From Gemmatimonadales bacterium (lineage in GTDB: Bacteria; Gemmatimonadota; Gemmatimonadetes; Gemmatimonadales; GWC2-71-9), in the NCBI GenBank assembly GCA_036262935.1, contig DATAHW010000089.1:16084-80083 (forward strand): a stretch of DNA of 64,000 bases. The letters run 5' to 3'. The translations under genes and the position numbers were made by a program. This document shows positions 50,828 to 56,270 of the stretch, one piece after another. The notes beneath the pieces are model-generated. The model made no database searches. It had not been told where the DNA came from and saw only the letters and a list, made by a program, of their open reading frames with translations. Each line of letters begins with the position of its first letter. Position 1 is the stretch's first letter.

Positions 50828-50843
50828 TCAATACATGTGCCAG
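50828..50843 (-). promoter_or_regulatory. Sigma-54-like -24/-12 element CTGGCAC-atgta-TTGA upstream of locus A
   Basis: Minus strand reads gaCTGGCACatgtaTTGActtt, with the -12 region about 70 nt upstream of ATG 50759. The -12 is TTGA rather than consensus TTGC. Confidence 0.4.
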
Positions 50844-51057
50844 TCTTCGAGCCGACGCGTCCCTCCGCGGGAAGGCTCGTGATGGCCGCTCCGGACACTG
50901 TGCCTAAGTCGAGCGCAGGTGAGAAGTTGGCGCGTGGGGTCGGATGCTTGGGGGAGCCGGACCGCTTGGGACCGCGATCGATCCGGCTATCGGCGGCGAC
51001 TGCGGCCGGCGGGGTGTGAATCGCGTGCGCCTGTCAAATCGCGGCAGGGTCCCGGCA

Positions 51058-53652
51058 TCATCGTGTCGCATCCGGGTGCCGTTCCAGCCGGAGTACGACA
51101 CCGTCGAGCACCCCTCCTTCGGGCGAGGGCTCCACCCGGAAGCGCACCGGAGTCTGGGCTGCCTTGAGCAGATCCAGTACCTCGTTCGGCACCGACACCT
51201 CGTACTCCCCCGGCCTGAGACCCGCGGCGTAAAACGCGCCGTCCGAGAAGGTCGTTACCCGCGTCGTCGCCCCGGAGCCCAGATGGCGCAGCAGGACCGA
51301 CACGCCACCCACGCCGGCGTCGTCGCCCAGGACGACCCGGCCCGCGGCTTCGCTGGCCGGGAGCATCGGGACATCCACCGCGTCGTACGAGTTCGGCCCG
51401 GGCACGAGTCGATACACCAGCGCCGCCGGCACCCAAAGCGGGTCTTCGAGCGAAAGGGTGTCCACCTCGACCGACGTGGCTTCGAAGGGCACCAAGTCCC
51501 ATGCCGAGTAGCGGCCCAGGGAATCGGTCGTGACCCCGCGCGAGCCCACCCGGAGCCGGACCCCCGCGAGTCCCGGCTCATCGGGCTCATGATGACCGTT
51601 CCCGTTGAGGTCCCGGAAGACCCGCCCCACCACGCGCGCCCGGCCGATCAGACGGCCGTTGCCGAACTCGAAGCGTCCGAGGTGGCGGTCATAGGTGGCC
51701 GATCCCTCGAGGAGATTGGTACCCTCGAGGCCGCTCTCCGCCGTCCAGCGGCTGCGGCTGGCGGCCCGCAGGGAGGGAAGATTGGTGGACAGCGCCACGT
51801 CCAGCGCGGGGCCGCGCTGCCCGCGCGACCAGCCGGTGCCGACGTCGAGCCGGACGGGGCCGGCGATCTGCCGGCCGACGCTCGCGGCGATCCGCGACAG
51901 CCCGGAGGTCTCGAGCGAGAGCTCGCCGCGGACATACAGCGACCGGAACACCGCCCCCGGCCCGCGGAGCACCAGATCGCCGGCCGCGTCCACCCCGATT
52001 TCGTCGGCGTCCTCGGCGGCGACAGTGTGCTGGTGATGCAGGCCGGTGACGAGCCGGAGCGCGGAGAACCTGGTCGTGAGCGCCAGCCGCTCGGCGTCGC
52101 TCGAGCCCACGGGCAGCGCGGCGTGCGAGAGCGCGAGCTGCAGATAACTGTTGCCCACGAGGGGGCGCGGCCGCCAGAACGCCACGACGTCGGTACGCGA
52201 GCGCTCGGATCCCGGCGTCACCAGCGGAGCCACGATGCCCGTGGCGAAGCGCGTGTGCTCGAGATCGAGGTGGAAGTCGGGGGTGGGGTCGAAGTCGACC
52301 CGCCCACGGAGTAGGCCGTGCGCGACAGCCTCGAGCGTGAGGCCGGTGGAGGTCGTGGCGGCGGCCGACACGAGCGCGTATGGGTGCCACAGATCCGGGA
52401 GCGAGTCCCGCCAGAAGTTGTCCGAGCCCGCCTCGGCGGTGAGCCAGCGCGAGATGCCGTAGCGCGCCGACAGCGAGAGCGCCCCCGCGCAGGGCTCGTC
52501 CTCGCAGGCGCCGGCGCTGGCCGCGTATTCGAACCGGCCCGCGGGCAGGCGATCGAAGGGCACCTGCACGGCGCGGCGCCGGTGAATGACCTCGCCATTC
52601 GGGCCGTAGGCCAGCACCTCGACCGCATTGGAGCCATACCGGAGCGGCACGTCCAGCGCGTACCGCCCCGCGCCGGTGGAGGGCGAGGAGCTCAGGAGCT
52701 GCTGGTCCTGGTACAGGTCCACTTCCCAGCCGTCGGGAACGGTCCCCTCCAGGAGCTCCTGGCCGAACGCGGCCGGCCTGAGGAACGGTGCGTTGGTGAG
52801 CTCGAATCCACGGACGGTGCGCCCCCGCCTCGCGCCCGGCACGATGTCGCCCACCCGGAACTGGCGGACCCAGCGGTTCGTGGGCCACGCGCCCGACCAG
52901 GACGAGCGGAAGTCGGTCGTGCCGCCCGTGGGCGACTGCTGCCCGAGATACTGCAGCTCGAGGCTACCGCCGAGCAGCTGGGCGCCGAGCCCGAGCTGCA
53001 CGAGCGAGGCATCCACGGGGTCGGTGAGCGAGCCGGTGTAGGCCCAGTCCAGTACCGCGCCGTCCGCCATGCGCCGGGGCCGGGACAGCGCGACCTCCCA
53101 CGGCGTGGAGTTCGGGAGACCCAGCAGCATGCGCCGGCGCTGCTCGCGGGCGAGCCGGCGGACCACGGGCAGATCCGCGGTGTGGCTGGCCACCAGAATC
53201 AATTCGCCGGGATCGGATTGGAACGTGATGTCGAGCGCGGCGCCGAGCGCGTCCGTGGTCGCGTACAGCTCGCCGCCGCTCCAGGTGAGGGTCGCCCGGG
53301 ATACGTGCCACGAGCTGTCGCCACGCGCCACGGTCCCCGAGTCGGTATCGAAGCCGAAGGACACGCGCCCCGGCTCGAGGACGCCCGAGAGCCGGTGCCC
53401 CGGCAGAATGGTGCCGGTCCGGACCTCCGCCAGCTCGAGCAGCCGCCGCACCGGAAGCAGAATTGTGGTGTCCCGGCCCAGCGCCGAGATCACCTCGACC
53501 GGGCCGCCATCGATGCGGAGCTGCAGCAGCACTTCGCTGGCGGAGGTGTCCGCCGCACTCGGCTGTTGCGCTGCGAGCAGGCGGGTGAAGAGCAGGAGCA
53601 GCCCGTTCGCCAGGACCACCGCCGCGAGGCGGCGCAGCGGAGGGCGGCGCAC
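51058..53652 (-). CDS. Usher-like outer-membrane protein (864 aa) with two C-terminal Cna-B/CarboxypepD_reg-like beta-sandwich domains (locus B)
   Basis: Signal peptide RLLAAQQ. An N-terminal soluble domain (LLQLRIDGGPVEVISALGRD..ILLPV..L) resembles usher N-domains. A large beta-rich middle region is followed by RVFRDLNGNGHHEPDEPGLAGVRL and GRVVLGDD..SVLL...TFSDGAFY..GLRPGEYEV. Confidence 0.6.
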   Translation of the reverse strand: MRRPPLRRLAAVVLANGLLLLFTRLLAAQQPSAADTSASEVLLQLRIDGGPVEVISALGRDTTILLPVRRLLELAEVRTGTILPGHRLSGVLEPGRVSFGFDTDSGTVARGDSSWHVSRATLTWSGGELYATTDALGAALDITFQSDPGELILVASHTADLPVVRRLAREQRRRMLLGLPNSTPWEVALSRPRRMADGAVLDWAYTGSLTDPVDASLVQLGLGAQLLGGSLELQYLGQQSPTGGTTDFRSSWSGAWPTNRWVRQFRVGDIVPGARRGRTVRGFELTNAPFLRPAAFGQELLEGTVPDGWEVDLYQDQQLLSSSPSTGAGRYALDVPLRYGSNAVEVLAYGPNGEVIHRRRAVQVPFDRLPAGRFEYAASAGACEDEPCAGALSLSARYGISRWLTAEAGSDNFWRDSLPDLWHPYALVSAAATTSTGLTLEAVAHGLLRGRVDFDPTPDFHLDLEHTRFATGIVAPLVTPGSERSRTDVVAFWRPRPLVGNSYLQLALSHAALPVGSSDAERLALTTRFSALRLVTGLHHQHTVAAEDADEIGVDAAGDLVLRGPGAVFRSLYVRGELSLETSGLSRIAASVGRQIAGPVRLDVGTGWSRGQRGPALDVALSTNLPSLRAASRSRWTAESGLEGTNLLEGSATYDRHLGRFEFGNGRLIGRARVVGRVFRDLNGNGHHEPDEPGLAGVRLRVGSRGVTTDSLGRYSAWDLVPFEATSVEVDTLSLEDPLWVPAALVYRLVPGPNSYDAVDVPMLPASEAAGRVVLGDDAGVGGVSVLLRHLGSGATTRVTTFSDGAFYAAGLRPGEYEVSVPNEVLDLLKAAQTPVRFRVEPSPEGGVLDGVVLRLERHPDATR

Positions 53653-53659
53653 GGGGGCC

Positions 53660-55616: not shown

Positions 55617-55650
55617 CGGAGAGACCTGCCCGTTCGCCGGGTGAGGACGT

Positions 55651-56178
55651 TCAGTTGCCCGTGTAGGCGGCGCTGAGCGTGATGGTGTTGGTATAGGTGC
55701 CCGCGGCCTGATTGGCCGCCGGGCTAACGGTACCGCCCAGGTAGATGCTGAGCAACCCGGTCGCATTGTTGAGCCGCGTGGTGCTGCCCGTCGCCGGGTC
55801 GAAGGCGGTGGCGCCGGCCCGGGTGCCCGCCACGTTGTAGGCCGCCGCGTTGGCGCCGTAGGTGAGGGGGATGTTGGCGCCCGGGCCGGTGAGGACCGCG
55901 GGCAACGTGGTGAAGCTCACGGTCACCTCGGCATTGGGCGAGCCGGTGAGACCCACTTCGCCGGAGGTCACGTCGCTCGGCAGGACCGTCCGGGCGATGC
56001 CGCCAAACGTCGCGCCGAAGTCGAGGTCCTGCACCTTCGCCGCGACCAGCGCCTGCTGCACCACGGCCGTCGCGGTGATGCTCGCGGTGGCCGGCGTGGC
56101 TTGGGCCTGCGCGGTGCTCATCGCGCCGGCGAGCATCAGAGCGGCGCCGGCAACGGCACCCTTCACGGACACGTTCAT
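55651..56178 (-). CDS. DUF4402/SCPU-like pilin subunit B1 (probably the major subunit)
   Basis: ATG 56178 with ggtggagagagcc SD. Signal peptide MSTAQAQA. Contains LDFGATF, AEVTVSFTTLPAVL and the C-terminal AGTYTNTITLSAAYTGN. ORF 55651..56373 trimmed. Confidence 0.7.
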   Translation of the reverse strand: MNVSVKGAVAGAALMLAGAMSTAQAQATPATASITATAVVQQALVAAKVQDLDFGATFGGIARTVLPSDVTSGEVGLTGSPNAEVTVSFTTLPAVLTGPGANIPLTYGANAAAYNVAGTRAGATAFDPATGSTTRLNNATGLLSIYLGGTVSPAANQAAGTYTNTITLSAAYTGN

Positions 56179-56254
56179 GGCTCTCTCCACCTGAGGGTTA
56201 AGGGCGGGCTGCCCGGGAGTGAATCGGGGGCGATCGCGTTGTCGGGCGGGCAGA

Positions 56255-56270
56255 CCAAGTTCTGTGCCAG
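56255..56270 (-). promoter_or_regulatory. Sigma-54-like -24/-12 element CTGGCAC-agaac-TTGG upstream of locus B
   Basis: Minus strand reads caCTGGCACagaacTTGGtctg, with the -12 region about 77 nt upstream of ATG 56178. The -12 is TTGG rather than TTGC. Confidence 0.4.

Follow-up and report, generated by a model that had tools for sequence, protein, structure and literature searches.

Two boxes ahead of two pilus-like operons

The stretch of DNA analysed here (64 kb of contig DATAHW010000089.1, called the window in what follows) has a G+C content of ~72% and comes from a soil bacterium, which the protein homologues place in Gemmatimonadales. It carries two pilus-like operons on the minus strand, locus A and locus B, and a box with the -24/-12 layout of a sigma-54 (RpoN) promoter is located upstream of each of them. 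From their sequence, the two boxes are very probably promoters of these operons that are read by sigma-54. The original prediction described two identical CTGGCAC-N5-TTG boxes at these places, and both are indeed present: the pattern (CTGGCACNNNNNTTG) matches the window only twice, at 50843..50829 and at 56270..56256, both times on the minus strand. The surrounding minus-strand sequence is gaCTGGCACatgtaTTGAc at locus A (50845..50827) and caCTGGCACagaacTTGGt at locus B (56272..56254). The boxes and the genes that follow them are given below, where loci fetched from other genomes are numbered with an L.

56254..56270 (-): sigma-54-type box of locus B, CTGGCACAGAACTTGGT; GG at 56268-56267, TTG at 56258-56256, -12 base G at 56255
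55651..56178 (-): pilin B1, first gene of locus B, with signal peptide; Pfam DUF4402 6.8e-5 (24.0 bits, cut-off 25.2), SCPU 6e-3
51058..55545 (-): rest of locus B after B1
50827..50843 (-): sigma-54-type box of locus A, CTGGCACATGTATTGAC; GG at 50841-50840, TTG at 50831-50829, -12 base A at 50828
50208..50759 (-): pilin-like A1, first gene of locus A, with signal peptide; 569 homologues, no Pfam match
46258..50200 (-): rest of locus A after A1, in synteny with L029-L036

Both boxes are intergenic and lie on the coding strand of the downstream pilus operon. The G of the TTG is separated by 70 nt from the A of the pilin A1 ATG (50759) and by 78 nt from that of pilin B1 (56178), compared to the 70-77 nt given originally. 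The -24 element had been called a perfect match and the -12 element atypical (GA or GG), which agrees with the A found at -12 in locus A and the G in locus B. Compared to the sigma-54 consensus YTGGCACG-N4-TTGCW, the window boxes match TGGCAC exactly and have TTG at the exact spacing; they are also intergenic, co-oriented with the operon and, like those of the related loci, 67-100 nt from the start codon. What they miss is the TTGC: the G of TTG is at the right place, 10 nt after the second G of GG, but the C that should follow is not there. With this exception, the sequence features of a sigma-54 promoter (GG, spacing, position, conservation) are all found.

The occurrence of the pattern was compared with shuffles of the window that preserve dinucleotides. 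These lead to an expectation of 0.08 matches to CTGGCAC-N5-TTG, and 2 matches were reached in 1 of 100 shuffles; relaxed versions of the box pattern gave extra matches at chance level only. The 135 motifs that Bonocora et al. 2015 (PMC4591121) obtained by ChIP-seq of sigma-54 in E. coli were turned into a 17-column weight matrix, with the base composition of the window as background. The boxes score 13.96 and 13.74 and rank 1 (locus A) and 2 (locus B) among the 127,968 positions on both strands, despite the penalty that the matrix imposes for the absent -12 C. Since a matrix derived from E. coli places the two boxes first and second in the window, they are more than a chance pair. A scan for sigma-70-like promoters (TTGACA-N16-18-TATAAT-like hexamers, a consensus that may differ from that of this phylum) returned 0 sites in 50700..51200 and 56150..56700, and no terminators or Rfam elements were found in the two intergenic regions.

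Conservation in orthologous loci and recurrence at distant ones

Seventeen related B-type loci were taken from GTDB genomes and JGI metagenomes in a search seeded by a 12-sequence pilin alignment, a 41-sequence alignment being too divergent as a seed. Fifteen of them have usable upstream DNA, with pilin identities of 74-92%. TGGCAC[A/G]GAACTTGG is found in 12 of the 15 upstream regions, at -89..-93 from the ATG, and one more region reads TGGCAT. The GAACTTGG part is kept in all 15, including the two sequences that have neither TGGCAC nor TGGCAT, one of which (L015) looks chimeric. The GG of the -24 element is present in 14 of the 15 sequences, the exception being L015, and it is invariant in the alignment of the A-type loci. 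In the B alignment, the column information content is highest at the box and at the ribosome-binding site, while the stretch that separates the box from a conserved ATCGCC block varies and contains indels.

The locus A box of the window (CTGGCACATGTATTGA) was aligned with those of seven orthologues, which read ATGGCACGCGTATTGA, CTGGCACGCCTATTGA, CTGGCACGCCAATTGT, TTGGCACAGGTCTTGT, GGGCACGGGTCTTGT, TGGCATACCTCTTGT and AGGCATGCGTCTTGT, that is, TGGCAC/GGGCAC/TGGCAT/AGGCAT-N5-TTG[A/T]. The only invariant intergenic columns among the eight A-type upstream regions, the window included, are GGCA, TTG and the ribosome-binding site, which is the footprint that a -24/-12 site made of two parts around an unconstrained spacer should leave. 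The -24 and -12 elements are thus conserved at both kinds of locus while their flanks diverge, and at locus B the spacer is conserved too.

Distant DUF4402 loci, with pilin identities of 34-47%, were fetched by exact-protein look-up. They carry the following boxes, with distances to the ATG of the first pilin unless stated otherwise.

L018: cGGCACAGTGGTTGC (cGGCAC-N5-TTGC), at -93
L025 and L041: TGGCTT-N5-TTGCA, at -99 and -100, respectively
L028: TGGCACACCTGTTGC, at -93
L037: TGGCACGTGCGTTGC, at -92
L040: TGGCACACCGCTTGC, at -96
L040, before the second pilin: TGGCATACGGTTTGC, at -73
L039 (33% G+C): TGGCACAATATTTGT, at -70

Three of these distant loci have a perfect TGGCAC-N5-TTGC core, and the distance from the box to the pilin start lies between -67 and -100 in all homologous loci. 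When the best matrix score within 200 nt upstream of the pilin was evaluated for seven families, the Fisher combined p-value was 1.6e-8, a conservative figure because the null still holds true sites. Among 72 upstream intergenic regions on the same contigs, those of the pilus-first genes rank 1, 2, 3, 7, 8, 9, 15 and 51 (Mann-Whitney p 2.4e-4). The match in L039, at 4925 (+), reads ATGGCACAATATTTGTA and scores 22.1 with the matrix; it stands ahead of a DUF4402 pilus operon on a contig of 33% G+C, which is probably from Bacteroidota, judging from a neighbour with a Por_Secre_tail domain. Sigma-54 control of the DUF4402 fibre family seems therefore to cross phyla.

The reading of the boxes as sigma-54-type promoters with an atypical -12 element has withstood all computational tests applied to it. 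It is supported by the matrix ranks, by the conservation of the cores, their spacing, their orientation and their distance to the pilin ATG in orthologues, and by the recurrence at distant DUF4402 loci. The activator encoded beside one of these loci, the sigma-54 machinery known from Gemmatimonadales and the confirmed E. coli promoters with T or A at -12, all described below, support it too.

The -12 base, the upstream element and the reading of the boxes

The -12 base is G in all 15 B-clade sequences and A (3) or T (5) in the A clade, while at the distant loci it is C in 7 of 8 boxes and T in L039. Compared to the sigma-54 consensus, the C is hence replaced in a way that is stable across orthologues of each window box. 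In the E. coli set, 125 of the 135 sites have C at this position, 6 have A, 4 have T and none has G (Bonocora 2015, PMC4591121). The same set contains confirmed sigma-54 promoters without the C, namely pspA (TTGGCACGCAAATTGTA), pspG (..TTGTA) and hydN (..GTGAA). A and T at -12 have accordingly working precedents, while G has none in the set, and the C is a typical rather than an absolute feature of sigma-54 promoters.

A third sigma-54-like box, GAGGCCCGGCATTTGCG, is located in the window at 44655..44639 (-), with GG-N10-GC spacing and a canonical TTGC. It lies 52 nt upstream of an open reading frame at 44405..44587 (-), which encodes a conserved, acidic protein of 60 aa (MSLSDGRPWE...GPEYWLYKKQ), and GGCCCG-N4-TTGC is conserved upstream of the orthologous small open reading frame in L029, L031 and L032. 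Since both this third box and the distant pilus loci keep TTGC, the deviation at -12 is locus-specific and not lineage-wide. The -12 element helps to hold the sigma-54 closed complex silent, and a weakened element may change the basal activity of the promoter by tuning the stability or the leakiness of that complex.

A further conserved element is found upstream of the locus B box.

56288..56320 (-): conserved element ahead of the locus B box, two tandem dyads of the GTC-N9-GAC type, CGTCAAATTTTCCGACG and after it CGTCACGATTCCGCACG; only one other intergenic block of the B alignment is better conserved

The YGTCAAGAA motif recurs co-oriented upstream of the pilus promoters of L002, L008 (twice), L012/13 and L029, the element being located at 1764-1796 in L008, at 4188-4206 in L040 and at 9896 in L029. 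The L040 sequence, ATCGTCAAGAAACTAGAC, matches that of L008 at 17 of 18 positions, although the pilin identity between them is only ~40%, and ATCGTCAAGAAACT[C/A]GAC is near-identical between L008 and the distant L040, where a kinase and an enhancer-binding protein (EBP) are encoded in the immediate neighbourhood. Other distinct exact matches to the motif number 3 in ~474 kb, all of them within annotated genes or behind tblastn protein matches. No clear copy of the dyad element is present in locus A of the window. The dyads are a candidate binding site for an EBP or another regulator. We read them as the site of a shared regulator, plausibly of the EBP type encoded next to L040, and the HTH_8 domain of such a protein is a candidate binder of ATCGTCAAGAAACTCGAC or of the GTC-N9-GAC dyads.

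The L040 neighbours form a divergent operon, 1.2 kb from the first pilin, of a histidine kinase and a protein with Response_reg, Sigma54_activat and HTH_8 domains, the activator loop of which reads GAFTDA. The only other EBP found in the window and all fetched loci is encoded in L026, 6.7 kb from the pilus locus. It is a Response_reg/AAA+/HTH_8 protein of 527 aa with ESGTGKE and GAFTGA motifs, and proteins closely homologous to it bear the name 'sigma-54 dependent transcriptional regulator [Gemmatimonadales bacterium]'. The same search of the window and the fetched loci found no rpoN, a negative that is weak evidence. Gemmatimonas aurantiaca T-27 has one sigma-54 (rpoN YP_002761129.1) and nine EBPs (Francke 2011, PMC3162934, supplementary file 1). 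Together with the EBPs of Gemmatimonadales, this establishes that the sigma-54 machinery exists in the order.

It is thus quite probable that each box constitutes the core promoter, with GG at -24 and TG at -12, of a sigma-54-dependent operon for a surface fibre of the DUF4402/SCPU type. RNA polymerase with sigma-54 would bind the box as a closed complex, which an AAA+ EBP encoded elsewhere in the genome would remodel with ATP. At locus B, the GTC-N9-GAC dyads ahead of the box would probably serve as the docking site of the activator. The standard sigma-54 geometry would put the start of transcription ~12 nt past the -12 base and leads to the following predictions.

50816 (-): predicted transcription start of locus A, leaving a 5' untranslated region of ~57 nt
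56243 (-): predicted transcription start of locus B, leaving a 5' untranslated region of ~65 nt

Sigma-54 binding, activator dependence, the start positions and the role of the dyads are all inferred, and several observations weigh against such an assignment. The -12 C is missing in both window boxes, and not one of the 135 E. coli sites has the G found in locus B. The 15-nt box of locus B is wholly invariant, including the GAAC of the spacer, which exceeds the known needs of sigma-54; a second factor may share this site. A six-frame motif search of the window revealed no EBP or RpoN signature, as the original prediction had said for EBP genes, and tblastn of the window with a Gemmatimonadales EBP and E. 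coli RpoN returned nothing either, the RpoN negative being weak evidence. The centres of the locus B dyads lie ~53-69 nt upstream of the predicted start, while most characterised enhancers are farther away. Finally, L022 has no clear box within 200 nt of its pilin, the sole candidate being CGGCACGGTCGGTGC at -215.

We have also considered alternative explanations of the boxes. It is unlikely, in our estimate, that sigma-54 binds them but works there in an atypical manner, either by activator-independent (leaky) initiation or as a polymerase roadblock or silencer. Such behaviour would fit the conservation of G, A or T at -12 over long evolutionary times, and the -12 element contributes to keeping the closed complex silent. 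It is also known that many E. coli sigma-54 sites are bound but not productive (Bonocora 2015, PMC4591121). However, pspA, pspG and hydN, which have T or A at -12, stay activator-dependent (for pspA and pspG, the dependence on PspF is taken from that paper), and the conserved upstream dyads speak for ordinary activation, as does the homologous locus linked to an EBP. We consider it quite unlikely that the box is instead the operator of an ordinary regulator unrelated to sigma-54, resembling TGGCAC-N5-TTG, with transcription starting from an unrecognised housekeeping promoter. The missing -12 C and the spacer of locus B, tighter than expected for sigma-54, could be accommodated in this way, and the housekeeping consensus of Gemmatimonadota is not known to us. 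Yet the conserved positions are precisely those that carry information for sigma-54 (GG, the next C and a T-G at a fixed 10-nt offset), locus A shows no constraint on the spacer, and the motif lacks symmetry and has the orientation of its operon in every case. In addition, homologous operons elsewhere have the full TGGCAC-N5-TTGC, one of them linked to an EBP.

The invariant spacer of locus B can be read in yet another way, with GGAACTT as the -35 element of a promoter for the extracytoplasmic function (ECF) sigma factor encoded just upstream, which the box would be or overlap. Every B orthologue keeps GGAAC or AGAAC with TT after it, and in the window, L001, L002 and L029-L036 the pilus loci are immediately preceded by an operon of ECF sigma, anti-sigma and DUF4097 genes. 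A conserved -10-like CGT is, however, not found 16-17 nt after GGAAC, where the alignment is at its most variable and contains indels, and the spacing to the next conserved block is 22 nt in the window and 24 nt in L008. The locus A boxes have no GGAAC, and the conserved motif of the ECF gene itself is different (TGCAACC-N16-GATCCAA). Moreover, distant box-bearing pilus loci have no ECF neighbour, and L005, where the B box is retained, gave no tblastn match to an ECF operon. This reading was rejected as very unlikely, on account of the lacking -10, the differing ECF motif and the absence of GGAAC from locus A. That the boxes are a chance resemblance, or the shared inheritance of two duplicated promoter regions, and have no function is extremely unlikely. 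It is true that the window holds no more than two copies and that the shuffles did reach two matches once in a hundred. Apart from the box, however, the upstream regions of locus A and locus B have nothing in common; orthologues retain the box amid diverging flanks, and it turns up again at homologous operons that are unrelated. The comparative data effectively refute this possibility.

Starting from sigma-54 promoters at both loci, a more far-reaching proposal can be formulated. The lost -12 C, with its invariant G in the B clade, and the invariant 15-nt box would mark a distinct class of sigma-54 promoter, in which the -12 'lock' is weakened or the site is shared with a second factor; at the same time, the DUF4402-type pilus operons of at least two phyla would form one sigma-54 regulon, under one family of two-component activators acting on (A)TCGTCAAGAAAC or GTC-N9-GAC sites. 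We regard this combination as rather doubtful.

The fibre operons, their neighbourhood and known systems

Downstream of the first pilins, the two operons are organized as follows.

55057..55545 (-): second DUF4402 pilin of locus B, 162 aa, between B1 and the chaperone-like gene; Pfam 4.4e-7
54209..55057 (-): chaperone-like protein of locus B, 282 aa, so called from size and order
53660..54205 (-): DUF4402 pilin B2 of locus B; Pfam DUF4402
51058..53652 (-): usher-like outer-membrane protein of locus B, 864 aa, so called from size and order
49622..50200 and 49133..49561 (-): pilin-like genes of locus A, with signal peptides
48377..49126 (-): chaperone-like protein of locus A, 249 aa, so called from size and order
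46258..48393 (-): usher-like protein of locus A, 711 aa, with a C-terminal OmpA peptidoglycan-binding domain

Pilin B1 has 114 homologues, from Gemmatimonadales wherever they are named. The second DUF4402 pilin of locus B is masked by a longer spurious open reading frame in another frame (54209..55519). The comparison of A1 with the DUF4402 family by hhalign gives a probability of 33% with an E-value of 4.5e-4, which suggests, weakly, that the A-type and B-type pilins are homologous. The chaperone-like and usher-like proteins have no sequence match in Pfam, NCBIfam or the PDB, and in particular none to the PapD or Usher families. The single-sequence AlphaFold model of the chaperone-/usher-like protein is all-beta, with a pLDDT of 54.7, too poor for searching; the labels 'chaperone' and 'usher' accordingly reflect size, gene order and the all-beta prediction. 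The orthologues of the locus A usher-like protein in L029-L032 have 547-554 aa, compared to 711 aa in the window, and a separate OmpA-family gene at 45399..46253 (+), convergent with the usher-like gene of locus A, follows it.

The ECF sigma gene (58261..58836), a zf-HC2 anti-sigma gene (57528..58250) and a DUF4097 'toastrack' gene (56649..57515), all on the minus strand, form one operon immediately ahead of the pilus loci, with a conserved and probably autoregulated promoter, TGCAACC-N16-GATCCAA, at ~58872. Since the ECF operon is syntenic with locus A in L029-L036, locus B looks as if it had been inserted between DUF4097 and locus A in the clade of the window. On the other side, a tRNA-Pro (GGG) gene at 44844..44919 (+) bounds the pilus region, and the same tRNA comes after the pilus loci in L005, L029, L031 and L032. 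Because of this shared tRNA, the interval from hutU to the tRNA behaves as a variable island that holds locus A, locus B or both. In the hutU-ECF intergenic region (~58890..59010), tandem GGAAGGAC units face their reverse complement CCGTCCTTCCGTCCTTCC and form a long imperfect inverted repeat, the like of which was not seen in the stretch of L002 that was read.

Two more sites were observed on fetched loci. In L018, at 15084 (-), and also in L019-L021, TTGGCACGAGGCTGGCA is located ~50 nt upstream of an unannotated gene for 158 aa, which lies directly downstream of the pilus locus and convergent with it; this is possibly another sigma-54 promoter. In L022/L023, at 5441 (+), CTGGCACGCTTTCTGCA was, when found, the best matrix match among the fetched loci (18.5 bits). 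It falls within the 3'-terminal part of a PDZ-GAF-SpoIIE gene, and the next gene in the same orientation is not reached for 3.5 kb; the match may represent the type of intragenic sigma-54 site that is frequent in E. coli.

Type IV pilin genes are classic sigma-54 targets. The pilA genes of Pseudomonas and Myxococcus, controlled by PilR and sigma-54, offer an analogy to the present loci, in that the major subunit of a fibre would be under sigma-54 and an NtrC-type two-component activator, such a pair being encoded at L040. The difference is that the window fibres are of the DUF4402/SCPU type with chaperone-like and usher-like partners and are not type IV pili. Closer in composition are the archaic chaperone-usher pili (Acinetobacter Csu, Myxococcus spore coat protein U): the B-type subunits match SCPU/DUF4402, and the genes come in the order of subunits, a periplasmic all-beta protein and a large outer-membrane protein, whereas the window partners match no PapD or Usher family. 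The searchable literature contains no report of sigma-54 control of Csu/SCPU-type pili and no mention of DUF4402. As to the promoters, the A-clade boxes and that of L039 share the TGGCAC-N5-TTGT deviation with the PspF-dependent pspA and pspG (TTGT) of E. coli, both strongly bound by sigma-54 (FAT 21 and 15; Bonocora 2015, PMC4591121). Those genes belong to an envelope-stress regulon in a different phylum, with a different activator, and provide no precedent for G at -12.

Sigma-54 regulons share a 'bacterial exterior' theme (Francke 2011, PMC3162934), into which the surface-structure operons described here fit. Sigma-54 boxes ahead of surface-fibre genes are thus a known pattern, and the understanding of sigma-54 itself is unchanged by the present finding; its special points are the conserved non-C base at -12 and a probable activator site common to distant DUF4402 loci. 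Such naturally occurring boxes, in which G, A or T at -12 has remained stable in evolution, could serve as probes of the role of the -12 C. Gemmatimonadota are abundant soil bacteria whose gene regulation is almost without experimental study, and the phylum is absent from a 2025 survey of sigma-54 regulons in 16 phyla. For this group, the result proposes, in concrete and testable form, how a so far uncharacterised family of surface fibres is regulated, and it suggests that sigma-54 control of the DUF4402 fibres is ancient and shared with a Bacteroidota-like lineage.

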